Source: an uncultured virus (IMG/VR IMGVR_UViG_3300044953_000297)
Lineage: Duplodnaviria; Heunggongvirae; Uroviricota; Caudoviricetes
DNA: 59,088 nucleotides
Direction: 5' to 3' (one strand)
Virus record (IMG/VR): IMGVR_UViG_3300044953_000297
Shown here: one piece after another, positions 614-56,515 of the stretch
Layout: the number at the start of each line of letters is the position of its first letter
Numbering within the stretch: position 1 is the first letter of the stretch
Notes under the pieces: model-generated
Told to the model about the DNA's origin: nothing
Databases searched by the model: none
The model's input: only the letters and a program-made list of their open reading frames with translations
Position numbers and translations under genes: made by a program

Positions 614-1592
614 TTGGGAAAATATAAAATATATGAACGAGAAAATTATTGTGATACGGAAATTAAAAGTTTAGTAGAAAAGTATAAAAATTTGCCAAAA
701 TATACCGATATTTTTAATTCAACTATAACATATAAATCGGAACATATTTGGAGAAACTCTATAATAAGAAAAATGGATATTTCTTCGTGTAATTTATTTT
801 TCTATCTTTTAGAAGATAATATTCCCGATTGTAAGTATTGTAATATTAAATTATCAATTGATTCATATTCATATGGTGGGAAGGGTTTTTCATTTAAAGG
901 ATTTAAAAAATATTGTCTAATTTGTACAAATAATCAAAACTATAAAAGATATAAACATTCTAAAGAATCAGTTTTAAAATTTAAAATTTCAAAATTAAAA
1001 TGGACAAATTCAAAATCAGGAAAGTTATTTTATAAAAAACTCGGAAAACAAAATAGTATAGGTTTAAAAAAAATATTTTCAAACAGATCAGGGGCGTAAT
1101 CAAATTGAAAAAACATCATTAAAACAATCAAAAATTTTAAAAGAAAAAATATTAAAGGGAGAATTTCATCCAAATATAACAAACAGTTGGACAAATTGGA
1201 ATGCTATAATTACATTAGAAAATAAAATATATAAGTTTAGAAGTTCATGGGAAGCTTCATTTTTTGTTAGTAACACTCATTGTAAATATGAGTATATTAG
1301 GATACCATATATTGATAAACATGACAAAACTAAAACTTATATTGCGGATTTTTATGATGAAAAAAACAAAATTTTATATGAACTAAAACCTAGATCCGTA
1401 TTTAAAAAAGAAGTAGTAAAAATAAATCAAGTTATAGAATATTGCATAAAAAATGAAATAAAATTTATATGGTTGAATGAAAACAACATTCTAAATCATA
1501 TTGACAAAAAAGATTTCTCGGATGATAATCTAAATCAATACAATAAAATGTTAGAGGGTATTTATGGTAAAAATAAAAATAAAATCAATTAA
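614..1592 (+). CDS. Free-standing PD-(D/E)XK (TnsA-N-like) homing endonuclease, frameshifted at the A8 run near 1066-1073; start uncertain
   Basis: N-part has CKYC..YC motifs. After the frameshift it reads FRSSWEASFF..KYEYIRIPY..TYIADFYD..LYELKP, stop TAA at 1590-1592, overlapping the next gene. Confidence 0.7.
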
Positions 1593-1683
1593 AAAATTGG
1601 AAGAAAAAATGCATGTATATGATTTATCAGTGGATGGAAATCATAACTTTTTCATAGGAAACAAACCAACTTTAACATCAAAT
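1564..1683 (+). mobile_element. Split intein C-fragment (IntC), 40 aa
   Basis: MVKIKIKSIKKL..VYDLSVDGNHNFF..LTSN|C = blocks F and G with Cys+1. Own ATG with GAGGGT upstream and an in-frame TAG at 1552-1554. Confidence 0.85.
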
Positions 1684-2298
1684 TGTGATTTTTTAACGAC
1701 TGAAGCTCAGGCATCTCTTCGTAATTTGATGGAAACATATAGTCAAACTACGAGGTTTATTTTGACTTGTAATTATGTTGAGAAGATCATCAAGCCTCTT
1801 ATTAGTCGTTGTCAAGTGTTTGATATTGAACCGCCTACTCCAAAGAATGTAGCGATTCATATCAAGAATATCTTGGATAAAGAGAATATTAAGTACGAAT
1901 TGCCATCTCTTAAGAACGTATTGGATGATTTTTATCCAGATGTACGGAAGATTATCAACTTCGTACAACAGAATAGCACTAGTGGTACATTGAAGATTGT
2001 CAAAAATCAAAATGCAAGTTTTGATCTTAAAAACAAAATTATTGAACTTCTGAAGGGTTCAAAAACAAACTCAAGTGCGTTTAATGATATTCGACAACTT
2101 GTAAATGACGCGGGTGCAAAAGTATATGACGAACTGTATAGTGAATTGTATGTCAGAACAAAAGAATATGCTCCTAATAAAGAAACTTCAGTAATTATTG
2201 ATATAGCAGAACATACTTATCAAAGTAGCATGGTTGTGGATAAAGAAATTACGTTCATGGCTTGTATTGCTAAATTGATAAAAACAATCGGTAAATGA
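1564..2298 (+). CDS. Split-intein C-fragment fused to the C-terminal part of a clamp loader small subunit (T4 gp44/RFC-like)
   Basis: After residue 40: CDFLTTEAQASLRNLME..RFILTCNY..IIKPLISRC (post-Walker B, sensor 1, SRC motif). Walker A and the Walker B DE are missing. Confidence 0.9.
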   Translation: MVKIKIKSIKKLEEKMHVYDLSVDGNHNFFIGNKPTLTSNCDFLTTEAQASLRNLMETYSQTTRFILTCNYVEKIIKPLISRCQVFDIEPPTPKNVAIHIKNILDKENIKYELPSLKNVLDDFYPDVRKIINFVQQNSTSGTLKIVKNQNASFDLKNKIIELLKGSKTNSSAFNDIRQLVNDAGAKVYDELYSELYVRTKEYAPNKETSVIIDIAEHTYQSSMVVDKEITFMACIAKLIKTIGK

Positions 2299-16259: not shown

Positions 16260-18080
16260 ATGTCGGATTTAAAAAATTTAGATAAATTACCGGGTGGTGT
16301 AGGCGATGGTGTAGATGCCTCAAAATTCAATCCTATACAACTTTCTTTAGGAATACAAATTGAAATGGAGCATACAAATGATCCTGAAATAGCACAAGAA
16401 ATCGCGTGCGATCATTTATATGAAGATCCCGCTTATTATACAAAATTGGTAAAAGCTGGTTTAGCCAAAGAATTTCAACCGTCACACAACAGCGGTCTCG
16501 GTGATCCTGATTATTCAGCTAACGATGCTTCTAGAGTAGGCATCGACGGTTTAAAGAAAGGAAATATGGGTGGTAAAATTGGTAATACATCTAATGGTCA
16601 AGTTGACGGAAGAAATAGTGAACCTATTGTAAATAAAACCGTTGATATTGAATTAGACGAAAAGAAAGGTAAAAAGAAACCAAAACCAACCAATCCAACT
16701 TTATGGGCAAGAGCTAAAGCTGCTGCAAGAGCCAAATTTGATGTATATCCGTGCGTACCACTTGATAGTAAAGCTCTTACAAAAAATGGATGGAAAACAT
16801 ATGAAGAATTAACTATAGGCGAATTGATATTGACTTATAATATTAATAAAGATGAATTGGAATGGAAACCAATATTAAATCTTAATTTTTTTGAAAATGC
16901 AGAGTTAGTAAGAATGTATAAACCTACAGGTTTTTCAATAAAGTGTACACCTAATCATAAGTGGGTTGTACAAAGAGGAAATGATTATTCTATTGTAGAA
17001 TTGATAGAAACAAAAGATTTACCTAAAAGAGCTAGAATAATAGTATGTGCAGAGTTAAAAAATAATGACAAAATATTATTAGAAAATTTTTCTAAAACCG
17101 ATAATTGGACTGAAAATATCATTAATATGAGTTCTGAACAAAGAAAGTCGTTTTTAGCAGCATCTATAATATATGATGGGTGGGATAAGGGATCTTCTTC
17201 AAAAATAGAAGGTCGTCATACTTTTGGATTTGTACAAAAAAATTCAGATCATTTGGATGCTGGTTTATTGGCAGCGTATTTAAGTGGATATTATGTATCT
17301 GTATGTGATAGAGAATCTATAACGTCTGCAAATTTTATAAGAAACAAAAAATTTCATTGTGTTCAAAATATAAAGTTTGAGAAAACAGAAAATGAGGATG
17401 TTTGGTGTCCGACTACCGAAAATAATACCTGGATAATGTACCAAAACGGATTAATTACAATTACAGGCAATTCGGCTTATGCTAATGGATGGGCCGCTAA
17501 GTGGTATAAAAAACACGGTGGTGGCTGGAGAATGAGTGAAGATGCCGAATCTAGTCCAGCCGCAGCTTATGATGGACCATTTCCATCACAAGTATCTCCA
17601 GATGGACAAGGCACTTATGGAAGTGGATATGATTTTGTAGGTTTTGCGGAAAATAAAGGTACAATTATGAAAAAAGAACAACTTAAAGAAGCTATCAAAA
17701 AATTAGTAAAACAAACATTGATTGAACAAGAACAAGACGATGTTGATGTAGCAGCCGAAGATGAAACTGTTACTATTACATTGGACAAACAACTTGCACA
17801 AAAATTGCATGATTTATTAATGACTCAACTTCAACCAGAAACTCCAGCAGGTCCAGAAGATGCAAACGATGTTGTGACTGCAGAAGATGACAAAGAAACA
17901 GTTGCTGCAAATATGAGTAGCGACCGACTACCACCAGGAGCTCTTCATAAACAACTTGGAGTTCCATCTGGAGAAAAAATACCAGCTGGTAAATTAGCAG
18001 ATGCTGCTAATAAAGGCGGTAAACTTGGTAAGAGAGACAGATTAGCTCAAACATTGAGTAAGATTGCCAAGAAAAAGTAA
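16260..18080 (+). CDS. Modular phage protein (DUF5661-like domain plus KFDVYPSAYANGW module) containing an intein
   Basis: GIQIEMEHTND..DHLYEDPAYY; spliced module PTNPTLWARAKAAARAKFDVYP|SAYANGWAAKWYKKHGGGW. Confidence 0.8.
   Translation: MSDLKNLDKLPGGVGDGVDASKFNPIQLSLGIQIEMEHTNDPEIAQEIACDHLYEDPAYYTKLVKAGLAKEFQPSHNSGLGDPDYSANDASRVGIDGLKKGNMGGKIGNTSNGQVDGRNSEPIVNKTVDIELDEKKGKKKPKPTNPTLWARAKAAARAKFDVYPCVPLDSKALTKNGWKTYEELTIGELILTYNINKDELEWKPILNLNFFENAELVRMYKPTGFSIKCTPNHKWVVQRGNDYSIVELIETKDLPKRARIIVCAELKNNDKILLENFSKTDNWTENIINMSSEQRKSFLAASIIYDGWDKGSSSKIEGRHTFGFVQKNSDHLDAGLLAAYLSGYYVSVCDRESITSANFIRNKKFHCVQNIKFEKTENEDVWCPTTENNTWIMYQNGLITITGNSAYANGWAAKWYKKHGGGWRMSEDAESSPAAAYDGPFPSQVSPDGQGTYGSGYDFVGFAENKGTIMKKEQLKEAIKKLVKQTLIEQEQDDVDVAAEDETVTITLDKQLAQKLHDLLMTQLQPETPAGPEDANDVVTAEDDKETVAANMSSDRLPPGALHKQLGVPSGEKIPAGKLADAANKGGKLGKRDRLAQTLSKIAKKK
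16752..17471 (+). mobile_element. Intein, 240 aa, with degenerate LAGLIDADG-like region
   Basis: CVPLDSKALTKNGWK (block A), CTPNHKW (block B), FLAASIIYDG, VWCPTTENNTW..ITGN|S (blocks F and G). Confidence 0.92.
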
Positions 18081-22380: not shown

Positions 22381-24819
22381 TTATCTTATTCCTTTTCTTT
22401 TTTTGTAATCGTCTAACGCGGCATTAAGTGCTTCCTGTGCTAACACACTACAGTGAATTTTAACTGGTGGAAGTCCACCCAATGCTTCTACTATGTTATC
22501 ATTGCTAAAATTTTTTTCAAGATCTTCTATTGTTCTACCCTTAATAAGTTCGGTTGCCACACTAGAAGCAGCTATAGCACTGCCACAGTTATGTGACATT
22601 GCTCTTAATACAAAGAAACAGTTTGAACCTTCATTTAATTCTAAATCATAAACAATATAATTGTCATTAGATTTTTCCAATCCTCTTAATTCATTAACAT
22701 GTGTAATTTCTTTTTTTGATTTTAATGCAATTCCATTATGAATAAATCTTTGAATATCATTAATGCAAGTATCCAATTCATTTTTTTCAACAAACATCAC
22801 ATCAAAACCAGCAGATGAATAATCTTTTCTTTTTTGTATCATCCATCCTTGATTTTCACGATTTTGCATAAAATGAGGTAAATTTTTAGTATAAACTTCA
22901 ATTACTTTTTTTTGACCATTTACTTTAAAATCAGGATTAAATCTTTTTCCATCTGGTGTGTTTATCCAAAACTTATAATCTCCTACGTATCTTAAATCTA
23001 GATTTTCATTTACAAATTTATTAATAAACTTTTTTTCTAATAAAGTTGGTCTTTTCCACTGATCTTTTTTAATTCCCTCTTGCCAGTTTTTAACATATTC
23101 TGGATTTTTCCACATTTTTTTACAAGAAATGCTTGTTTTAAAACTAGAAATTTCAAGATTTTTTCTTTTGTATTTTTTTTGATTCTGAGGCAATTCTTTT
23201 TGTTTCATCAATCCAAGATTATTTCTTTTTGAAATTTTTTTTGAATTGATATCTTTTAACCATTGTTGTTTTCTAACATTATTAATTGAACGGAGTTCTC
23301 GTTCTGTCATTTCCAATACTTCCATTCCAATTTCAAAATTTTCTGTTACTAATGGTCTATTATCTGCGCCCCACCAAACATGGTCTTTAGTGCAAATTAT
23401 TTTTTTCCTTAATCCAAAATCTAATACACATAAATCATCGGAAGATACTTCTTTTTTAACAATATTTTTAACAGTATTTTTAACTACAGAGCTTCCATTC
23501 CATGTCCAAATTTGATCACCTATTTTTAAGTTTTTAATGGATGTATATCCGTTTGGAGTAGCAATTGGACTATTACCACCTAAGCATCCAAATGTCTTGA
23601 ATCGAGCATCAATAACTTTATTGGTTTGTTCATCGATTCTGAGACTAATCTTCATTATATCACCACAATTTTTAACGACTATTCCTTCTTCAACATTCAG
23701 GGTGATACGTGATAAAACAATATAATTATTATTTTCCTCAACTTGTAATGTATATGTTTGAATTTCTCCAATATATTCTCGTTTGATTATATTGTGATTA
23801 TAATGTTTGCATTCATCAAAAAACTCAGTCCATGATGGAAATCTTGTTGATAAAGACTGTGGAATTTTATTTTGTTTGGCATAAGATCGCCAAAGATTAG
23901 CGGTCAACTTACCGTGTTGTTTATATAAATTATTTCCTATTTTGAATAAATCTTCATCCGAATATCCTAACCACTTCGGATTTTTATTTCTCGGCTTAGA
24001 AGCGAATTTATATTTCCATTCATCGGACGTTTTATGATAACAATTATTATTTCCTTTTTGTCTTAGAGATATTAACTTCCTCTGTTCTTCGGTGGCCAAT
24101 TTTGAAAAATGATTTGCCAATTCACTTTTGTCATCAAACTTGTTAATGTTTTCCAATAAAATGTCTTTATTAATACATACATCAAATGTTTTTGGTCTAT
24201 CCCAATTTGGGTTTGTCAACTTAGTATGATCTGATTTTGGTAATCCTTGCAAATTACTAATACAGTTATTTTGTTTGTTTTCATCTATGTGATGTATATC
24301 ATATCCTATAGTATTATGGTCAGGATTGTGAAATTTATAAATTTCAATGTGTTCTTTCCTATGTTTGGTTTTTCTAATTTCCCAATATCCATTTTTGATT
24401 ATTTTTCGTTTGAATGGATAAATAGAATCATCACTTGTTAATAATTTATTTTCAACATATTGTTTTTTAGGACGAGTGAGAAATTTATGATCTTCCGTAC
24501 ATGTTATTGTACCGCCATCATTTAATGTCAATTTATATACTTTTTTGACACCAGATACAACTCCTATAGCATTTTTTATTTCAAATAAATTTGTTTTAGT
24601 ATTAAAGCTCCAAACAGGGGTTATTTTGTTTACTAAATTTTTAATAGGAGTATGTAAATTACCATCCGCTGTTGCTATTAAAGTATCACCATCAAAACAT
24701 GCTGCAGCCCCTACTTCACCTATAGCGTTTGCTTCTTTTATGTCACCCATATTTCTGGGATTCATAAAATGATCCATTACAGTTTGATTATATAGAGTAT
24801 AAGATTCATTCATACCCAT
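22381..24819 (-). CDS. iscU: IscU/NifU-N Fe-S cluster scaffold containing two inteins (135 aa after splicing)
   Basis: Exteins: YNQTVMDHFMNPRNMG..GEVGAAA|CGDIMKISL..DARFKTFG|CGSAIAASS..LPPVKIHCSVLA. Confidence 0.95.
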   Translation of the reverse strand: MGMNESYTLYNQTVMDHFMNPRNMGDIKEANAIGEVGAAACFDGDTLIATADGNLHTPIKNLVNKITPVWSFNTKTNLFEIKNAIGVVSGVKKVYKLTLNDGGTITCTEDHKFLTRPKKQYVENKLLTSDDSIYPFKRKIIKNGYWEIRKTKHRKEHIEIYKFHNPDHNTIGYDIHHIDENKQNNCISNLQGLPKSDHTKLTNPNWDRPKTFDVCINKDILLENINKFDDKSELANHFSKLATEEQRKLISLRQKGNNNCYHKTSDEWKYKFASKPRNKNPKWLGYSDEDLFKIGNNLYKQHGKLTANLWRSYAKQNKIPQSLSTRFPSWTEFFDECKHYNHNIIKREYIGEIQTYTLQVEENNNYIVLSRITLNVEEGIVVKNCGDIMKISLRIDEQTNKVIDARFKTFGCLGGNSPIATPNGYTSIKNLKIGDQIWTWNGSSVVKNTVKNIVKKEVSSDDLCVLDFGLRKKIICTKDHVWWGADNRPLVTENFEIGMEVLEMTERELRSINNVRKQQWLKDINSKKISKRNNLGLMKQKELPQNQKKYKRKNLEISSFKTSISCKKMWKNPEYVKNWQEGIKKDQWKRPTLLEKKFINKFVNENLDLRYVGDYKFWINTPDGKRFNPDFKVNGQKKVIEVYTKNLPHFMQNRENQGWMIQKRKDYSSAGFDVMFVEKNELDTCINDIQRFIHNGIALKSKKEITHVNELRGLEKSNDNYIVYDLELNEGSNCFFVLRAMSHNCGSAIAASSVATELIKGRTIEDLEKNFSNDNIVEALGGLPPVKIHCSVLAQEALNAALDDYKKRKGIR
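22588..23586 (-). mobile_element. IscU intein 2, 333 aa, with Vsr/PD-(D/E)XK-like endonuclease
   Basis: CLGGNSPIATPNG, CTKDHVW, RPTLLEKKF..NPDFKVNGQKKVIEVY, VYDLEL..MSHN|C. Confidence 0.92.
23668..24699 (-). mobile_element. IscU intein 1, 344 aa, with HNH endonuclease
   Basis: CFDGDTLIATADG, CTEDHKF, DIHHIDENKQNNCISNL, TYTLQVEENNNY..VVKN|C. Confidence 0.92.
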
Positions 24820-47979: not shown

Positions 47980-48095
47980 CTTGGATTGAAAACAGACATT
48001 CTACTATGGGTGAATCCAACATCGTTAAAGATATTGATGCAGGGTTTATTGCTGTAGGACAAAATTGGAACGGTAAACATGTGGTACAAACACAA

Positions 48096-48234
48096 AAGAG
48101 TGTACTGGACTTTTTTGGAAACCTATTACCCCGAAATATTTGAAAATAAAATAAATCGGTAGGGTTTTTATTACTATGTATATGCTGATAGTCAATAACG
48201 GCTATCATAACACACACAAACACAAAAGGAAATA
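48096..48234 (+). repeat. Direct repeat R1, copy 1 (139 bp, structured leader plus RBS)
   Basis: Nearly identical to 49572..49710 (2 mismatches seen). Confidence 0.92.
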
Positions 48235-48235
48235 T

Positions 48236-48451
48236 ATGTCAGATAATAATAAAACTCCCTACGAACTACGTTGGGATATATTGAGAGAAATGATCACCGT
48301 CACTCAAAATGAGTGGTTCACAAAGAAAGATATTGCTGAACGTAATGCAGAAAAGAGTGGAAAACAAATAGAATATTTGGGCGACTTTCCTCTACAAACT
48401 GCGGTTGAAAGAGCGGAGAATGTATATAATCAATTCATCTGTAAGAAATAA
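48236..48451 (+). CDS. conserved small phage protein (KTPYELR type)
   Basis: MSDNNKTPYELRWDIL..AENVYNQFI; AAGGA SD upstream of ATG 48236. Confidence 0.7.
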   Translation: MSDNNKTPYELRWDILREMITVTQNEWFTKKDIAERNAEKSGKQIEYLGDFPLQTAVERAENVYNQFICKK

Positions 48452-48483
48452 TAAATAAATAAAAAGTTAATGTTCCGTGTATT

Positions 48484-48555
48484 AAAACACTTGACCACTG
48501 TGACCACCCGTGTTATAGTGGTCTTGTTATTGGTACACACAAGTAAATCAAAAAA
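48484..48555 (+). promoter_or_regulatory. Repeated promoter cassette P1, copy 1
   Basis: TTGACC-17nt-TATAGT (48491-48519) with TG extension; repeated at 51583..51650. Confidence 0.8.
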
Positions 48556-48557
48556 CT

Positions 48558-49550
48558 ATGATTGAAAAATTGACTCAACTGCAACAAGATAATTTGCCCG
48601 GATACGTTAAAAAATGGGTTGATATTGGAATCAATACCGATGAGATTGACTTTTTGGAATGCGTAAATCAAATCAAGAAAGCGTACGAAGTGGTTGGCCT
48701 TGCTTCTCCTACTTATTTTATCGGTCCAGTAAATAATCCGTATGAAGCCGCAGTAGCAGAATACATTATTGGCCAATTTAGCAAAGAAAAAAAACAGTTC
48801 AACAATCCGGCGCATTTGAATCAAATGGTCTTGGAAGAAATACAAAATCAAATTAAGAGTAGTAATACTGGGAATACAAAGAGTAAATTGTCCATTTCTA
48901 ATCAGGCGTATGGGTTTCAAGAGTATTGGTTGAGTTACTATGATTTTTTTATAAATGAATGCAACCTTGCAATTAATCTCGTTAAACCGCTTATTGATCT
49001 TAGCAAAGTTTGCGGTTGGTGGACTCCGTTGAAGGACGTGGCTATCATTCAGCACCGGCCTCTTGAAATTCATCGTGACAACGCCGGTCGTTTACACAAT
49101 GCTGATGGTGCTGCCGTCAGATATCTAGGTATTGGTGCTGATGTCTTTTTTATTCACGGTGTTCGCGTGACCAAAAAGATAATTGACCGTGATTTCACTG
49201 CTGATGACATCGAAAAAGAATCTAATGCTGAAGTTCGGCGTGTGATGATTGAGATATATGGACAAGCCAACTTCTTGATTGAAAGTTGTGCAGTTAAAAT
49301 TCATGAGGACGATTTTGGTGTATTATATCGAAAAGACTTACGCAATGACGAGCCATTGATGATGGTAAAAGTTGTTAATTCTACTATTGAATCCGATGGA
49401 ACATTCAAGGATTATTTTATTCGTGTTGACCCTAACGCTTATGGTGGAATCAAAACTGCACACGCTGCTGTAGCTTCGACATGGAGAAATAAGGATGGAA
49501 GCATGCTCTTTAATAAACCAGAAGACTATAATTGTGATATTCAAACTTAA
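48558..49550 (+). CDS. DUF6745-like protein
   Basis: WLSYYDFF, CGWWTP, RPLEIHRDNAGRLHNADGAAVRY, HGVRV, NAEVRRVMIE, VVNST..DGTFKDYFIRV..AVASTW. Confidence 0.8.
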   Translation: MIEKLTQLQQDNLPGYVKKWVDIGINTDEIDFLECVNQIKKAYEVVGLASPTYFIGPVNNPYEAAVAEYIIGQFSKEKKQFNNPAHLNQMVLEEIQNQIKSSNTGNTKSKLSISNQAYGFQEYWLSYYDFFINECNLAINLVKPLIDLSKVCGWWTPLKDVAIIQHRPLEIHRDNAGRLHNADGAAVRYLGIGADVFFIHGVRVTKKIIDRDFTADDIEKESNAEVRRVMIEIYGQANFLIESCAVKIHEDDFGVLYRKDLRNDEPLMMVKVVNSTIESDGTFKDYFIRVDPNAYGGIKTAHAAVASTWRNKDGSMLFNKPEDYNCDIQT

Positions 49551-49571
49551 TCAATAACTAACAAATCATAC

Positions 49572-49710
49572 AAGAGTGTACTGGACTTTTTTGGAAACCT
49601 ACTACTCCGAAATATTTGAAAATAAAATAAATCGGTAGGGTTTTTATTACTATGTATATGCTGATAGTCAATAACGGCTATCATAACACACACAAACACA
49701 AAAGGAAATA
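49572..49710 (+). repeat. Direct repeat R1, copy 2
   Basis: Nearly identical to 48096..48234. Confidence 0.92.
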
Positions 49711-49712
49711 AT

Positions 49713-50039
49713 ATGTGCAAAAAATCAAATAAAAAATCGGTATATCGTCAAGGTGATGTCTTGATTCTGCCAATCAATGAAATTCCTAACAATTTGAACC
49801 GAACAAAACGTGTGACTCTTGCTCTTGGAGAAGTCACCGGACATCATCATAGCATTTCAGATGGTGCTGTTGGATACGCGGATGACTCAGATGCCTTGGC
49901 AGATTATTTTGAGGTGAATGATGAATCTGCCGATTTAACTCATCAAGAACACGATACTATCACTCTTCCAAAGGGTAAATACCGTAAAGTCATTCAAGTA
50001 GAATACACTCCAGAAGCTATCAGAAATGTTGCTGATTGA
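49713..50039 (+). CDS. His-rich conserved protein, usual genomic partner of DUF6745
   Basis: YRQGDVLI..LALGEVTGHHH..LTHQEHDTITLPKGKYRKVIQVEY. Confidence 0.8.
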   Translation: MCKKSNKKSVYRQGDVLILPINEIPNNLNRTKRVTLALGEVTGHHHSISDGAVGYADDSDALADYFEVNDESADLTHQEHDTITLPKGKYRKVIQVEYTPEAIRNVAD

Positions 50040-50076
50040 GTATGTATAAGTAATCAAAATAATGACAGACAGTTTT

Positions 50077-50102
50077 AAGGGATTATATAAAAATCCCTTT
50101 TT
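50077..50102 (+). terminator. terminator-like hairpin directly before the mini-gene array
   Basis: AAGGGATT-ATATAAA-AATCCCTT then TTT and ATG 50103. Confidence 0.55.
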
Positions 50103-51550
50103 ATGACATTATCCGAAGAACAAATTCAACCAGTTCGGAACCAAGTTTGTGACCAAGTTCGGATCCAAGTTCGGAACCAAGTTTGTGACCAAGTTTGTGA
50201 CCAAGTTCGGACCCAAGTTCGGAACCACGTTTGGCCAAACTTGGTACCAAGTTTTGGACGAAGTTTGGGACCAAGTTTGGAACCGAACCAAGTTCGGAAC
50301 CAAATTTGGAACCAAGTTCAAGAATGAACTTATGACATTATCCGAAGAACAAATTCAACCAGTTCGGAACCAAGTTTTGGACGAAGTTTGGGACCAAGTT
50401 GGGAACCAAGTTCGGATCCAAGTTGGGAACCAAGTTTGGGACGAAGTTTTGGACGAAGTTTGGAACCAAGTTGGGAACCAAGATCGGATCCAAGTTGGGA
50501 ACCAAGTTTTGGACGAAGTTTGGTTCCAAATTTGGAACCAAATTTGGAACCAAGTTCAAGAATGAACTTATGACATTATCCGAAGAACAAATTCAACCAG
50601 TTCGGAACCAAGTTTTGGACGAAGTTTGTGACCAAGTTTGTGACCAAGTTCGGAACCAAGTTGGGGACCAAGTTGGGGACCAAGTTCGGAGCCAAGTTCG
50701 GAACCAAGTTCGGGGCCAAGTTCGGGGCCAAGTTCGGGGCCAAGTTCGGGGCCAAGTTCGGAACCAAGTTGAGAGCCAAGTTTGGAACCAAGTTTGGAGC
50801 CAAGTTCGGGGTCAAGTTCGGGGTCAAGTTCGGAACCACGTTGGGAACCAAGTTCAAGAATGAACTTATGACATTATCCGAAGAACAAATTCAACCAGTT
50901 CGGAACCAAGTTTTGGACGAAGTTTGGAACCAAGTTTTGGACGAAGTTCGGAACCAAGTTGGGAACCAAGTTGGGAACCAAGTTCGGGACCAAGTTTGGA
51001 GCCAAGTTTGGAGCCCAGTTCGGGACCAAGTTCGGAACCAAGTTCAAGAATGAACTTATGACATTATCCGAAGAACAAATTCAACCAGTTCGGAACCAAG
51101 TTTTGGACGAAGTTTGGGACCAAGTTTGGAACCGAACCAAGTTCGGAACCAAATTTAGAACCAAGTTCAAGAATGAACTTATGACATTATCCGAAGAACA
51201 AATTCAACCAGTTCGGAACCAAGTTTGGAGCCAAGTTCGGAACCAAGTTTGGAGCCAAGTTCGGGACCAAGTTTGGAACCAAGTTTGGAGCCAAGTTCAA
51301 GAATGAACTTATGACATTATCCGAAGAACAAATTCAACCAGTTCGGAACCAAGTTTTGGACGAAGTTTGGAACCAAGTTGGGAACCAAGTTTGGAACCAA
51401 GTTGGGAACCAAGTTCGGAACCAAGTTGGGGACCAAGTTGGGAACCAAGTTCGGAACCAAGTTCGGAGCCAAGTTGAGAGCCAAGTTGGGAACCAAGTTG
51501 AGAGCCAAGTTGGGAACCAAGTTTGGAATGTAAAATCAATATTTTTATAA
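50103..51550 (+). repeat. Nested tandem array: seven mini-gene units (ATGs at 50103, 50332, 50570, 50868, 51058, 51181, 51311) built from variable 12-nt NNNNNCCAAGTT repeats
   Basis: Each unit starts ATGACATTATCCGAAGAACAAATTCAACCAGTTCGGAACCAAGTTT ([15 protein letters not shown]). Six end in CAAGTTCAAGAATGAACTT. Confidence 0.95.
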
Positions 51551-51582
51551 AAATCATACTAAACAAGATAAACATCATTAAA

Positions 51583-51650
51583 AAAACACTTGACCACTGT
51601 GACCACCCGTGTTATAGTGGTTTTGTTGTTGGCACACAAGTAAATCAAAA
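51583..51650 (+). promoter_or_regulatory. Repeated promoter cassette P1, copy 2
   Basis: TTGACC-17nt-TATAGT (51590-51618), core identical to 48491-48519. Confidence 0.8.
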
Positions 51651-51667
51651 ATAAAAAACTAAAACAT

Positions 51668-52003
51668 ATGAAGAATAATTCACTGGTTCAATTCGTTCGG
51701 GATCGTAAGGGTCAACCCCGTGGTATGGTAATTGCTACTGTGATTGATAATACTATCCGAGTTGGTTGGAGTTATACTAATACAAAGGCTGGGGACCGAT
51801 TCAATAAGAGTCGTGCATACCAAATTGCACTTGGTCGTGCTGATACTGGTCAGGGTAACAAGGTTATGACCCCTCGTTCGGTTTACAAGGTTATGAACAA
51901 ACTTGCTGTTAGGGCTGAACGATATTATAAGAATGTGCCAATGGAGTCTGGTCATACGAGCTATGTTCCTGCTGACTTTTCTGAAGATATTCGTGGCGAA
52001 TAA
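51668..52003 (+). CDS. hypothetical phage protein
   Basis: VGWSY..GDRFNKSRAYQIALGRA motif; follows P1 copy 2. Confidence 0.65.
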   Translation: MKNNSLVQFVRDRKGQPRGMVIATVIDNTIRVGWSYTNTKAGDRFNKSRAYQIALGRADTGQGNKVMTPRSVYKVMNKLAVRAERYYKNVPMESGHTSYVPADFSEDIRGE

Positions 52004-52028
52004 TTTAAATAATTAATAATTATATATC

Positions 52029-52355
52029 ATGGATCGTTCTAAACAAAAGGGTACATTTACTGGTTCAATTGATGAGCTATTGAAGCGTTGTGCGAGTATT
52101 GATGTAGATAAACTTTATGCTGACTGTGAAAAGAGAGAATGCATTGATGCATTGATGCGAGAGATGGAGTGTACTGAAGAAGAAGCGGACATTCTTTATA
52201 AAGAGATTGCTTTGACTGAAGTAAAAAACACCGTAGACGATCTTGTCAAGGAAGGTCTTGTTGAAATAATTGGGTTTACCGAAGATGGTGAACCGCTGTT
52301 TGATCTGACTGAACTTGGGAAAAAAGCTCAGAATCAAATTAAAAAGGGTAAGTAA
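52029..52355 (+). CDS. hypothetical protein (C-terminal winged-helix-like)
   Basis: DLVKEGLVE..GEPLFDLTELGK. Confidence 0.6.
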   Translation: MDRSKQKGTFTGSIDELLKRCASIDVDKLYADCEKRECIDALMREMECTEEEADILYKEIALTEVKNTVDDLVKEGLVEIIGFTEDGEPLFDLTELGKKAQNQIKKGK

Positions 52356-52370
52356 TAATTATTTTAAGTT

Positions 52371-52447
52371 GGCCTCGTAGCTCAATTGTATAGAGTACTC
52401 GGTTTCTACCCGAAGGGTTGCAGGTTAGAGTCCTGCCGGGGCTACCA
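52371..52447 (+). tRNA. tRNA-Arg(UCU)
   Basis: Cloverleaf: GGCCTCG/CGGGGCT acceptor, GCTC/GAGT D stem, anticodon loop TTTCTAC, GCAGG/CCTGC T stem, encoded CCA. Confidence 0.88.
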
Positions 52448-52649
52448 CTTTTTTGGTAATTTTTCAAATACTAATAATATTTATAAGTTACCTCAAGAAC
52501 TTTTTAAAAGTTCTTGATCTTTGAAAATTGAATGTTAAGATAGTTAAGTAGTAAGCGATTGTTCTTTACCGCATGGTGGGAGAAGCACTCCTCTGGAACA
52601 TCTATGAATGGCGGAACTGCCTCGGCCTTTAACCGAAGGGGGTCACCAA

Positions 52650-53024: not shown

Positions 53025-55358
53025 ATGAAAACTATTGCTTCAAAGAACACGGTAGTCAACAGTCCGAACCTCACTTCGTCTGGCTTCACGATTCGTCAAA
53101 AGAATCTTGCCAAGATCATCAATATTGTTGAGAATGACATCTATTCCGACAAGATTCTTGCAGTTATTCGTGAGTATAGCTGTAACGCCTATGATGCCAA
53201 CGTGGAAGCTGGCAAGCGTGATGTGCCCATCGTGGTGAATATGCCTAGTCGGCTCAGTCCCGAGTTCAAAGTGCGTGACAACGGAAATGGATTGACCGAG
53301 CAGGAAATCCATGAGGTCTACACGTCCTATGGTGAATCTACCAAGGAAAACAGCGACGACTATATCGGTCAGCTTGGTATCGGCAGCAAAAGCGGTTTTG
53401 CTTATGGTGACAATTTTGTTGTAACCAGTTGGAAGAACGGCACCAAGACGGTTTACAACGCCGTCAAGGGCAGCGACGTGCGTGAAATGGTGAAGCTCTA
53501 CAGCGAGCCTAGCAACGATCCGTCTGGTATCGAGGTCAGCATTCCCGTCAAGACTGGCGACGAAGCTGTTTTCAAGAGCAAGAGCATAAATTTCTTCAAG
53601 TATTGGCAGACCCAGCCTCACATTGTTGGTGTTTCCGAGCAGGAAACCAAGACCACCGATGTTGTGATCATTGACGGTGGTGACTGGAAGGTGGTGGATA
53701 CTGAGAACAGTTATGCCAGAAACCATCGGGCTATTGCCATCATGGGCAACATTTCGTATCCTATTCAGTGGGATTTGGTTATGGAAACGCTGAACAAGAA
53801 CAATCGTTGCGACTTTCGCACCAACAGCATTGTGCGATTTATCACCAACAACAGCGTGGTGATTCGTTTCAAGATTGGTGAAATTCAGATGGCTCCCAGC
53901 CGTGAGGCTTTGCAGTACACCGAGCATACTGTTAGCAATATCGTCAAGAAACTGGAGCAGATTTGCGGCGAGCTTGAAAACATTTTGATTGCGCAGATAA
54001 ATTCTGCCAAGACGTTGTGGGAATATAAGTGCAATATCAATTGTGTGTTCAGCCGTCAGGTCAAAGGAGACCGGTATCTGAGCAATTATGGCTTGCTGGA
54101 AAACCTTGAGCTTATCTTTGAGCTTGTGAAGCCCAAGCTGACGTTCAACGGTGTCAACGTGTTGAATCCAAATTATGATGGTATGAACGAGTGGGATCGC
54201 AATCTAGGCAAGGTTAACATCGAAGAACGAGTCAAGAATTTCACCAAGGCGTTTGATCCGCTCGTTTATGCCTACAGCTTGACCGTCCGCAACAAGCTCA
54301 ACATTGAGACTGCCTCTCATACCAATCATCTTTTCAGGTTTACTGCGAGTGATCGTAACCAGATCATGATTATGGATATGGACCGCAAAACGCACGTCAA
54401 GCAGTGCCTCAAGTGGTACATTGGCACCAACAACATTGGACGTTTGTATGTTCTGTACTTCGGCAATGATGCTGTCAAGACTTCGTTCTTTGCCAAGAAT
54501 GATATGTCTGGTGCTACAATCGTGAAGTTCAGCGACGTGTTTGCCAAGTTCAAGCCGCTCATTCCTAAGCGTAAAAGCACTGGAAAGCTGGAGGATAATA
54601 CCGTCAAGTGCGGTATTCTCAATCCCACCAACCGCTTTAGCTATTACAGTCGCAATACTCTTGACAAACTCTGGGAATATCGTTCCGAGGTGAACCTCAA
54701 GACTGAATCTGGATACTATTTGGATTACAGCAACAACGAGTCTGTTACCATCAATGGCGAGAAGATGGGTGTGTGTATGTTTATGGGAGTTGTGAATGAA
54801 CTGCATTACGAGCGTATTTTGAATCTGACGCACATCAACAAAGTGCATGGTTTTGGTACGACGATTATCAACGGCAAAAAGTTTGCCCAAAACAAGTCGA
54901 ACTGGACCAACATTGTTGATTATATTGAGACTGAATTGAAGAATCTCAACAAGGATGAGTATGTATTTTCTGCACTTATGAATGAGCGCATCGAGAAGTT
55001 CGATCTGAATCTGTTCTACATCCATAAGGGTGTGCTCAATCAGTTTGTGACTCGTCTGACTCATGACAATATGTTTTCTGATCTGTATAAGATAATGCCC
55101 GAGATTAGTGAGAGCACCAATGAAAAGATGAAACTTCTGGAGCGTATCAAGGTGTCGTGTGTTCAAACCTATCACCAAAAGGCTCTCAAGCAAAAAATTG
55201 AGAACGGTTTCAATTTGATTGCTGCCAAGTATCCCATGCTCAAGACTCTGATTATGTCGTTCAATTGGAACAATATCGACACCATGCTTCAGGCGTCAGT
55301 CGTTGATGAGATTGTCAACTATATTAATTTTGTTGACAGCACCACCAAGAAGGTGTAA
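53025..55358 (+). CDS. rIIA: rIIA-like protein (N-terminal GHKL ATPase)
   Basis: IYSDKILAVIREYSCNAYDA, VRDNGNGL, YGESTK, IGQLGIGSKSGFAY, PSREALQY; adjacent to rIIB. Confidence 0.88.
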   Translation: MKTIASKNTVVNSPNLTSSGFTIRQKNLAKIINIVENDIYSDKILAVIREYSCNAYDANVEAGKRDVPIVVNMPSRLSPEFKVRDNGNGLTEQEIHEVYTSYGESTKENSDDYIGQLGIGSKSGFAYGDNFVVTSWKNGTKTVYNAVKGSDVREMVKLYSEPSNDPSGIEVSIPVKTGDEAVFKSKSINFFKYWQTQPHIVGVSEQETKTTDVVIIDGGDWKVVDTENSYARNHRAIAIMGNISYPIQWDLVMETLNKNNRCDFRTNSIVRFITNNSVVIRFKIGEIQMAPSREALQYTEHTVSNIVKKLEQICGELENILIAQINSAKTLWEYKCNINCVFSRQVKGDRYLSNYGLLENLELIFELVKPKLTFNGVNVLNPNYDGMNEWDRNLGKVNIEERVKNFTKAFDPLVYAYSLTVRNKLNIETASHTNHLFRFTASDRNQIMIMDMDRKTHVKQCLKWYIGTNNIGRLYVLYFGNDAVKTSFFAKNDMSGATIVKFSDVFAKFKPLIPKRKSTGKLEDNTVKCGILNPTNRFSYYSRNTLDKLWEYRSEVNLKTESGYYLDYSNNESVTINGEKMGVCMFMGVVNELHYERILNLTHINKVHGFGTTIINGKKFAQNKSNWTNIVDYIETELKNLNKDEYVFSALMNERIEKFDLNLFYIHKGVLNQFVTRLTHDNMFSDLYKIMPEISESTNEKMKLLERIKVSCVQTYHQKALKQKIENGFNLIAAKYPMLKTLIMSFNWNNIDTMLQASVVDEIVNYINFVDSTTKKV

Positions 55359-55414: not shown

Positions 55415-56515
55415 ATGATTAGTACCAGTATCAGCACCAACAGTATCACCGTGGTTGTTATTGACGACTCCGGCAACAAGGTTTACACGCTCGCTCGCAG
55501 CCATCCCAATTACGATGCTGTGCTTGAGGCGGTTCGCAACAACGACGAAGCCAGCATTCACAGTTTGTGCAACGTCGCCAAGTCGATTGAGAATTTTGCC
55601 GAGGGCAAGGTCCGAGTCGAGAACGGTCACGTTTATTATGGCAATCTGCTGCTTGAGGGAATTATTGTTGAGCGCATCCTTGGTTTCATCAAGGAAAAGC
55701 TTCCGGTCATTCCGTTGCTCAAGTTCATCAACAAGCTCTACGAGAATCCGTCGAGTCGTGCCACCAGCGAGCTTTACAAGTTCCTTGAGCACAAGAACAT
55801 GCCTATCACTCCCGACGGTAACTTCCTTGCCTACAAGGGTGTGCAGAGCGATTACTTCAGCAAAACTGCTGGCAACATCGAAGTGCTTCAAGGCAAGGTG
55901 GTTGACGGCAAGATTTTCAACGGTGTCGGCGAGACCATCATTGTGAAGCGCAATCAGGTCTGTGACAACAAGGAAGTGGGTTGCAGCAAGGGTCTTCACG
56001 CCGGTAGCGTCGAGTATGCCACCGGTTTTGGTGCTGGTGGCAAGGTTGTGATTGTTGAAATCAACCCCGCCAATGTGGTCAGCATTCCTACGGATTGTGA
56101 GTGTCAGAAGCTTCGTGCTTGCGCCTACAAGGTTGTGGGTGAATTTGAGGTTCCGCTCAACGACAATTATTGCGATGCTTATTGCGATGATGAAATCGAC
56201 CGCGACGGTGAAGTGGACGGTGAAGTGGACGGTGAAGTGAACGGTGAAGTGAACGGTGAAGTGAACGGTGAAGTGAACGGTGAAGTGGACGGTGAAGTGG
56301 ACGGTGAAGTCACTGTTGAGGGCGTGCTGGACTCAGCATATGCCGACGGATTTGACTCTGGTTATGACGACAGTATGAACCACAATCGTTTCTGCAACCA
56401 AGAGGTTGATCTGGAGTCTTTTGTTGAAGGTGTTGTCACCAAAGACGAGTATACCGATGCCTGGAAGAAAGGTTATCAGGCCGGCTACGATGACGGTGTG
56501 GTTGATCGAGACTAA
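55415..56515 (+). CDS. rIIB: rIIB-like protein
   Basis: LYENPSSRA..ELYKFL..PITPDGNFLAYKGV..CSKGLHAG..INPANVVSIPTD..KLRACAYKVV. Confidence 0.88.
   Translation: MISTSISTNSITVVVIDDSGNKVYTLARSHPNYDAVLEAVRNNDEASIHSLCNVAKSIENFAEGKVRVENGHVYYGNLLLEGIIVERILGFIKEKLPVIPLLKFINKLYENPSSRATSELYKFLEHKNMPITPDGNFLAYKGVQSDYFSKTAGNIEVLQGKVVDGKIFNGVGETIIVKRNQVCDNKEVGCSKGLHAGSVEYATGFGAGGKVVIVEINPANVVSIPTDCECQKLRACAYKVVGEFEVPLNDNYCDAYCDDEIDRDGEVDGEVDGEVNGEVNGEVNGEVNGEVDGEVDGEVTVEGVLDSAYADGFDSGYDDSMNHNRFCNQEVDLESFVEGVVTKDEYTDAWKKGYQAGYDDGVVDRD
56204..56311 (+). repeat. 9 x 12-nt in-frame tandem repeat, (D/N)GEV, within rIIB
   Basis: (G/A)ACGGTGAAGTG units: DGEV x3, NGEV x4, DGEV x2. Confidence 0.95.

Follow-up and report, generated by a model that had tools for sequence, protein, structure and literature searches.

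Behind a DUF6745 gene and a histidine-rich partner gene, seven small genes stand in tandem in a 59,088-nucleotide (nt) stretch of DNA from an uncultured virus (IMG/VR record IMGVR_UViG_3300044953_000297), which is referred to here as the window. The window corresponds to positions 15346-74428 of the 74,428-base record, whose completeness is estimated at about 21%. The three parts constitute a real and conserved phage module, in which a variable repeat tract that is normally internal to DUF6745 proteins stands as tandem mini-genes. The reading that we favor, and hold with moderate confidence, is that the array is made up of translated mini-genes that are detached homologs of the internal DUF6745 tract and are kept beside the DUF6745 gene and its partner.

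In a first-pass annotation, made from the nucleotide sequence without database searches, seven tandem units with an invariant start, variable tetrapeptides and mostly a QVQE-stop ending had been described, and this observation was confirmed. A 33-nt head (ATGACATTATCCGAAGAACAAATTCAACCAGTT) occurred exactly seven times on the plus strand (starts at 50103, 50332, 50570, 50868, 51058, 51181, and 51311) and was absent from the minus strand. The heads are followed by 5 to 21 copies of a 12-bp x-x-Q-V unit per mini-gene, and Tandem Repeats Finder reported a period of 12 bp over 50128-51528, with 117 copies and the consensus AACCAAGTTTGG. All units lie on the plus strand, and their products measure 74, 77, 97, 61, 82, 41, and 79 amino acids (aa). 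Unit 1 (50103..50327, 74 aa) consists of the head, 8 xxQV repeats, a 17-aa out-of-frame patch created by a shift of −2 and then +5 nt, and the QVQE-stop. Units 2 (50332..50565, 77 aa), 3 (50570..50863, 97 aa, 21 repeats), 4 (50868..51053, 61 aa), and 6 (51181..51306, 41 aa) are intact. In unit 5 (51058..51176), the head and 3 repeats are followed by a 5-nt insert (GGAACCGAACC), which causes the same +5 shift as in unit 1; the stop of the unit is thus out of frame, and the open reading frame (ORF) continues into unit 6 up to 51306, giving the 82-aa product. Unit 7 (51311..51550, 79 aa, 15 repeats) ends in a unique tail, WNVKSIFL-stop, and the QVQE-stop is found in frame in five of the seven units (1, 2, 3, 4, and 6). 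At each of the six junctions between units, the sequence is CAAGAATGAACTT-ATG, with a TGA stop, 4 nt, and the next ATG. Among 79 canonical 12-mers, 17 tetrapeptide types were counted, with RNQV (16), GNQV (11), LDEV (8), and WNQV (7) as the commonest. The variable positions of the 12-mer are 1, 2, 4, 5, and 7, and there is hardly any variation at third codon positions (G74/T5, C77/T2, A77/C2, and T79). The 74-kb contig contained no further 12-bp xxQV region, its sole other period-12 stretch being a G-E-V-[D/N] repeat in an unrelated ORF. Searches of the units against NCBIfam and PADLOC returned only subthreshold, low-complexity matches (GvpQ, GerPC, and REase_II).

The DUF6745 gene (48558..49550, plus strand) encodes 330 aa without an internal tetrapeptide tract. 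Its product matched the Pfam family DUF6745 (PF20530) over residues 141-310 with 151.5 bits (cut-off of 27) and an E value of 2.5e-44. An alignment of 32 sequences (A1) contained 26 invariant columns and covered both the N-domain with its LT.EQ start and the C-domain with the YG..WL.FYDFF motif. The LT.EQ-like start, which the annotation had ascribed to the family, is borne out by the consensus MIxxLTxEQxAKFPxYVKKW. On the basis of this alignment and of an AlphaFold2 model (predicted local distance difference test [pLDDT] score of 89), the protein was divided into an N-domain (aa 1 to about 80), a helical non-repeat linker (aa 84-102), and a C-domain starting at about aa 117. A search of 5.8 billion protein clusters yielded 514 relatives at an E value of ≤0.001; among the 120 cluster matches listed, most were about 330 aa long and most covered 100% of the query. 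One of nine longer relatives that were read (P0114, 420 aa) carries xxQV repeats between the N-domain and the YG..WL.FYD region, where P0114 has about 100 aa of xxQV and the window protein has a non-repeat linker of about 40 aa. The alignment with homologs thus upholds the earlier statement that the copy in the window lacks the repeat at the equivalent place. A scan of IMG/VR with the single DUF6745 protein retrieved no relatives; with the A1 profile, 259 were found, from which 79 viral loci were kept, and a scan of JGI metagenomes gave 449 relatives and 80 loci. Of these 79 loci, at least 58 were found by a script to have a tetrapeptide tract between the N- and C-domains; the true figure may be higher, as the tract appears in another frame in four of the rows scored as negative. 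The tract types comprised xxSV, xxQV, xxQL, xxNL, xxNI, and xxAV, so that the internal tract described in the annotation (xxQV or xxSV) does exist in the family.

These repeat-bearing proteins, among them gp38 of Mycobacterium phage prophiGD102-1 (with its partner gp37) and those of L014, L039, and P0114, have the same N- and C-domains as the window protein and the same partner gene. They also follow a common tetrapeptide plan, in which [Q/S][V/L] is fixed and [R/W/G][D/A/N/S] varies, with P0114 using xxQV. The difference lies in the arrangement: in the repeat-bearing forms, the tract is internal to one polypeptide and the partner is mostly upstream, whereas in the window the tract is distributed over seven separate genes and the partner is downstream. 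Among cultured-phage records, prophiGD102-1 was the sole match, with the same pair of genes (gp37 and gp38).

Arrays like that of the window were found in other phages. L008 and L010 repeat its order, with a repeat-less DUF6745 gene (306 aa), a partner at 65 to 67% identity, and tandem xxQV mini-ORFs. The metagenome scan added many more arrays, including those of the nearest relatives of the window (49 to 57% identity), and metagenome contigs with arrays include L085-L093, L096-L101, L104, L106, L113-L118, L122, and L127. The heads in these arrays (MKLTKEHLKPV, MKTLKQSDLNRV, MKSLTEKIY, MKNLRNKIF, and MLKSV) align with the head peptide of the window; they are homologous between phages and yet use different codons. 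By inspection, the heads also resemble the LT.EQ start of DUF6745 itself. In one subclade, x-x-A-T units (e.g., MTSKTLNKVEVATVDATVDAT) replace x-x-Q-V in the free mini-genes (L096 2700-3320, 4700-4890, and 6160-6740; L012 5468-5551 and 8353-8448), which indicates that the fixed dipeptide changed while the architecture stayed.

The annotation had suggested that repeat-less DUF6745 genes co-occur with free arrays. Raw script counts for complete genes gave a free period-12 or tetrapeptide region at 27 of 45 repeat-less loci versus 4 of 31 repeat-bearing loci. After manual checks, free arrays were assigned to about 26 of 43 repeat-less loci versus 0 or 1 of 33 repeat-bearing loci. L032 and L036 proved to be repeat bearing, L103 was doubtful, and the four cases scored as repeat bearing with a free region were a minus-strand AAxx ORF, period-6 simple repeats, and four RVQV. 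A Fisher test of the association gave a P value of 4e-5 on rows that are not independent; we do not lean on it, because the split forms constitute essentially one clade with near-duplicates. In a quick IQ-TREE phylogeny of the C-domain (77 rows, 67 of them different), a clade with a support of 95 in the Shimodaira-Hasegawa-like approximate likelihood ratio test contained 25 split forms, 7 repeat-less forms without a visible array, and no repeat-bearing form, while L127 and L119 fell outside. The predicted co-occurrence was therefore found, in the form of one or a few origins and not of many independent events. Path lengths within the split-form clade exceed 1 change per site. Judged from these comparisons of sequences, the arrays, with their start, head, Q-V frame, and nearby stop, are retained over deep divergence while the array sequences themselves diverged.

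The third part of the module, the histidine-rich partner (49713..50039, plus strand), encodes a 108-aa protein that is predicted to be all beta (model pLDDT of 89). It matched phrog_27831 (E value of 5.8e-16) and no Pfam family. Across 41 homologs, Q13, G14, D15, H44, H46, H77, H80, Q95, and D108 were invariant, and the sequence follows the pattern RQGDV...GE.TGH.H...H.EH. A tblastn homolog of the partner was present at 108 of 159 loci with a DUF6745 match and at 68 of 76 loci with a complete gene. Eight complete-gene loci lack it: on at least one side, seven of them have a flank of less than 800 nt, and the eighth, L012, is flanked by 6 kb in both directions. In repeat-bearing forms, the partner is mostly located directly upstream of DUF6745; it is located downstream in the window, L004, L006, L007, L008, and L010. 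By this sequence-based measure, the partner belongs to the build of the DUF6745 family. A Foldseek search with the partner model returned nothing at an E value of ≤0.001, and the best VIA-align scores were weak (Z of 3.0 for the Mis18a yippee domain, with a root mean square deviation of 4.1 over 58 aligned residues, and Z of 2.7 for cereblon); this result bears on a candidate beta-tent (Yippee-CULT) zinc-binding fold. A search of the ESM Atlas with the partner gave unnamed clusters only. For DUF6745, Foldseek against the PDB likewise returned nothing at an E value of ≤0.001, and a wide VIA-align comparison reached a best Z of 4.7 over 47 residues, so that no fold was assignable. NCBIfam and PADLOC held no family for either protein.

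The repeat is open in all six frames, and open frames alone are thus no evidence of coding. The reading frame is marked in another way: all seven heads of the window place their ATG in the single frame that reads as the family-typical [R/W/G][D/N/S/A][Q][V]. Moreover, each unit stands in the +1 frame of the previous one at the junctions of the window (50325-50334, etc.), of L008 (7513-7532), and of L010 (7540-7556), and in L008 and L010, the stop falls inside the next head, again with the +1 offset. The +1 offset, with the stop located at or within the following head, is thus common to three divergent phages. Since the repeat is also open in its +1 frame, which continues into the next head, a +1 slip or a small indel fuses units, as between units 5 and 6. 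A Shine-Dalgarno motif was seen in few of 52 ORF starts inspected by eye; its absence before the units is therefore not unusual and does not count against translation.

To the suggestion that the small proteins act in trans, co-folding adds a modeled interaction with DUF6745. The pairing of DUF6745 (A1) with unit 4 (A3) scored 0.67 (runs of 0.67, 0.67, and 0.71), and the best of three controls scored 0.01; this mark is reached by 116 of 157 solved complexes and by 2 of 215 mismatched pairs. When the best run was examined, Q and V of the unit touched DUF6745 in all 12 repeats, x1 did so in 9, and x2 did so in 2, and the tightest contacts on DUF6745 were L13, Y16, V17, W20, V21, G24, I25, S126, F130, and F131. 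The model supports binding of unit 4 to DUF6745, and translation of the units with binding in trans appears likely.

The closest functional parallel known to us comes from Mycobacteriophage Tweety. In published accounts, Tweety gp54 is an early-region protein with 40 to 48 Ala-Ala-x-x repeats between unique N- and C-terminal parts, whose third codon positions are invariant while the first and second vary (PMC2884959), and changes in its repeat number lead to escape from the Phrann gp29/gp30 defense (PMC9262239). By these descriptions, the array of the window shares frozen third and varying first and second codon positions with gp54. It differs in its motif (xxQV in place of AAxx) and in being detached, the gp54 tract being internal. 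Tweety gp54 (L083:1145-2266) had no DUF6745 or other Pfam match at an E value of ≤0.01, and no partner-like gene was seen beside it in the annotation; because of the missing DUF6745 match, we treat it as an analog only and not as a family member. A second parallel, VR2 of bbp36 in Bordetella phage BMP-1 (Pham et al. 2007), is presented in the cited passage (PMC2884959) as a variable-number repeat in a nonessential gene; its element of 24 bp (a 19-bp repeat with 5-bp spacers) lies within one gene. A diversity-generating retroelement was not detected: Pfam showed no reverse transcriptase family among the 59 window ORFs scanned, and nowhere else in the 74-kb contig did the tract recur. As the contig amounts to about 21% of the genome, a reverse transcriptase may lie elsewhere in it. 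Literature searches found no paper naming DUF6745, none on a detached DUF6745 repeat mini-gene array, and, for phage tetrapeptide or tandem repeats and small proteins, none of relevance among the matches listed.

The scheme that we propose from these data is as follows. Each mini-gene would yield a short helical protein with a conserved head of about 11 aa and 5 to 21 x-x-Q-V repeats, and in one clade of aquatic phages, DUF6745 has a short fixed linker in place of the tract, which is kept as tandem free-standing genes. Successive units would probably be translated by termination-reinitiation (across the stop, 4 nt, and ATG), a mode that we propose because the phage is mostly devoid of Shine-Dalgarno sites. 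In the model, the Q-V face and x1 are placed in a groove of DUF6745 formed by helix 1 of the N-domain and the WLSYYDFF helix, and the variable x2 side is predicted to stay exposed, so that one scaffold could be loaded with several different surfaces. Recombination or slippage among the 12-bp repeats may create, shuffle, and remove units. From the position of the module and the analogy to Tweety gp54, its role may be that of an early-expressed host-interaction or counterdefense module.

Several observations weigh against this scheme. The reading frame is broken in units 1 and 5 out of the seven. Variation within the array is almost wholly nonsynonymous, which fits repeat shuffling as well as selection, and, with its silent sites frozen, the array internally carries no signal of purifying selection. 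A hairpin with a U-run (50077..50102, plus strand; stem AGGGAUUA, a loop of 7, and a UAAUCCCU-like arm; −9.4 kcal/mol, z of −2.96) ends directly at the ATG of unit 1 and could end transcription. It was not among the sites listed by a terminator scan, hairpins occupy the equivalent place in L008 and L010, and it may either terminate transcription of the genes upstream or form a structure at the 5′ end of the array transcript. Seven clade members (L004, L006 and L007 [identical C-domain rows], L088, L103, L108, and L142) showed no array within their flanks. Only 12 unit-like matches (42 to 135 aa) were obtained among the 5.8 billion clusters, the query not being among them, which indicates that gene callers seldom call such units. 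As to binding, the co-fold runs shared as few as 5% of contacts, and the pLDDT of the unit ranged from 48 to 77, falling to 48 in one run. Finally, the modeled interface on DUF6745 was not enriched in conserved residues, with invariant or near-invariant residues making up 9 of 60 positions at the interface versus 81 of 330 overall (hypergeometric P value of 0.98).

A more far-reaching version of the scheme, which we offer tentatively and do not expect to hold as readily as the preceding one, is that the array represents a coexpressed repertoire of interchangeable specificity helices on the DUF6745-partner scaffold. Here, every mini-protein would present the same Q-V face to one groove and a different variable face to the outside, and a single early phage machine could be aimed at many variants of a host target, most plausibly a polymorphic defense protein. 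Renewal of the repertoire would be achieved by recombination among 12-bp repeats, without a dedicated mutator.

The mini-proteins might also be made and act alone, for instance as decoys or inhibitors of host proteins, with adjacency reflecting descent from DUF6745 only. The interface that lacks conserved-residue enrichment and the low register agreement of the co-fold runs speak for this possibility, which we nevertheless deem unlikely: the mini-genes stay next to DUF6745 and the partner throughout the clade, and the co-fold score lies far above the controls, with the conserved Q-V face on DUF6745. We give distinctly less credence to the view that the array is a nonfunctional by-product, that is, a decaying fragment (start codon and tract) of a repeat-bearing DUF6745 gene that was amplified by repeat recombination. 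The frame shifts in two of seven units fit such decay, the frozen silent sites point to recent amplification, and ORFs come free where all frames are open. Heads, starts, frame, and nearby stops are, however, kept in phages separated by more than 1 change per site in the DUF6745 C-domain, head peptides are conserved with different codons, and 1.4 kb of junk is seldom kept by phage genomes.

Somewhat less probable still is a role at the DNA or RNA level, in which the array would be a structured RNA, a series of sites for protein binding, or a set of donor cassettes for recombination into a repeat-bearing gene. In its favor are the near identity of the 12-bp units, their proneness to recombination, and matches between parts of the array and its own minus strand. 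Against the reservoir of donor cassettes raised in the first-pass annotation stand the DUF6745 gene of this phage, which lacks an acceptor tract, the lack of another 12-bp xxQV region in the 74-kb contig, and the result that no reverse transcriptase was found among the 59 window ORFs scanned. A structured RNA is disfavored by the Rfam scan of the array, which gave no family above threshold, and by the RNA fold of unit 4, which was not better than that of shuffles (z of −1.89), and a DNA-level role would leave the conserved peptide head in the Q-V frame unexplained.

The existence of the array is established, while the order and number of its units rest on one assembly. Between 83 and 89% of sampled words of 49000-52600 were present in five lake-water metagenome runs, and RNA runs were absent from the matches listed. 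Logan contigs broke inside the array, and none of the contigs of four runs (one of which is possibly the source sample) spanned it. Pieces at 49681-50130 (partner to unit 1 head), 50453-50563, 50776-50873 (covering the unit 3/unit 4 junction), 50907-51063, and 51494-51612 were identical, with 0 differences, in three to four runs of four studies, and run X2 differed behind 51249 (variant end). That misassembly of short reads created the array, or its unit count and order, is very improbable: no contig spans it and DUF6745 contigs often end inside such repeats, but its unique pieces were reproduced without difference across studies and similar arrays are present in many other assemblies.

The module lies between two sigma-70-like promoter stem-loops in a variable region beside an rIIA-like gene (53025-55358; phrog_612, E value of 1e-107; at most 31% identity to known phages). 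Two identical 31-mers bracket it (found exactly twice in the window, against an expectation of 0 from shuffles). Copy 1 (48491..48521, plus strand) comprises TTGACC, 17 nt, and TATAGT, with a TG before the −10 element, within a 12-pair stem-loop, and copy 2 (51590..51620, plus strand) starts the next transcription unit (gene at 51668). According to published descriptions (PMC2839356 and PMC4122927), the PeSL (promoter early stem-loop) elements of T4-type phages likewise hold sigma-70-like promoters within stem-loops; the likeness concerns the flanks of the array only and is drawn from these descriptions, not from sequence. A 147-nt intergenic cassette (49564..49710, plus strand) directly 5′ of the partner ATG is 97% identical to 48088-48234. 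It precedes two different small genes and, with the stem-loops, resembles the mobile PeSL cassettes of T4-type phages. A weak promoter candidate for the array (50036-50063, 9 of 12) was rejected, as such sites were no commoner than in shuffles. About 800 nt 3′ of the array lies a tRNA gene (52371-52444, plus strand; Rfam RF00005, 57.6 bits), and a tRNA-like sequence is also found 3′ of the array in L010.

The window is AT rich (GC content of 25 to 45%), and a blastn search of 48400-51700 against 50,697 phage records gave zero matches; the window is without a close relative there. We take the window to belong to a large uncultured phage of fresh water that has T4-like traits. The 366-aa ORF just after rIIA (55415-56515) contains nine tandem G-E-V-[D/N] tetrapeptides with a 12-bp period (about 56195-56310) in a locally GC-richer region. 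This stretch constitutes a second, unrelated internal tetrapeptide tract of the same phage, and the ORF has no Pfam or NCBIfam family. The window further carries a ClpP gene and intein-bearing genes. Matches to an intein-splicing domain were obtained at 22384-24819 (minus strand) in a NifU-like gene, together with an HNH endonuclease, at 16260-18077 (plus strand) in a DUF5661 protein, and at 1564-2295 (plus strand) in a clamp-loader-like ORF. Against a family cut-off of 35.8 bits, the NifU-like gene came near with 35.1 bits as the sole such case, and the other two scored 23.5 and 24.6 bits. A glycan-synthesis set that is large for a phage (2295-15000, 24825-25928, 32086-33213, and 39749-41451) includes GDP-mannose dehydratase, UDP-galactopyranose mutase, epimerases, glycosyltransferase families 1, 11, and 25, a DegT aminotransferase, and a nucleotidyl transferase.

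The pair of DUF6745 and its partner is widespread in phages and prophages: the searches recovered 259 relatives from IMG/VR, 449 from JGI metagenomes, and 514 protein clusters. The split form constitutes a natural dissection, in which the variable tract is separate from the two domains between which it usually lies, and several versions of it are present side by side. It allows one to ask directly whether the tract binds the scaffold, with which face it binds, and what the exposed face targets. If the analogy to Tweety gp54 holds, the module would represent a common, tunable counterdefense device of environmental phages, and the phage described here would carry a whole repertoire instead of one tuned copy. 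Should the repertoire reading be true, it would amount to a protein-level, germline-encoded "library" strategy that has not been described for phages.

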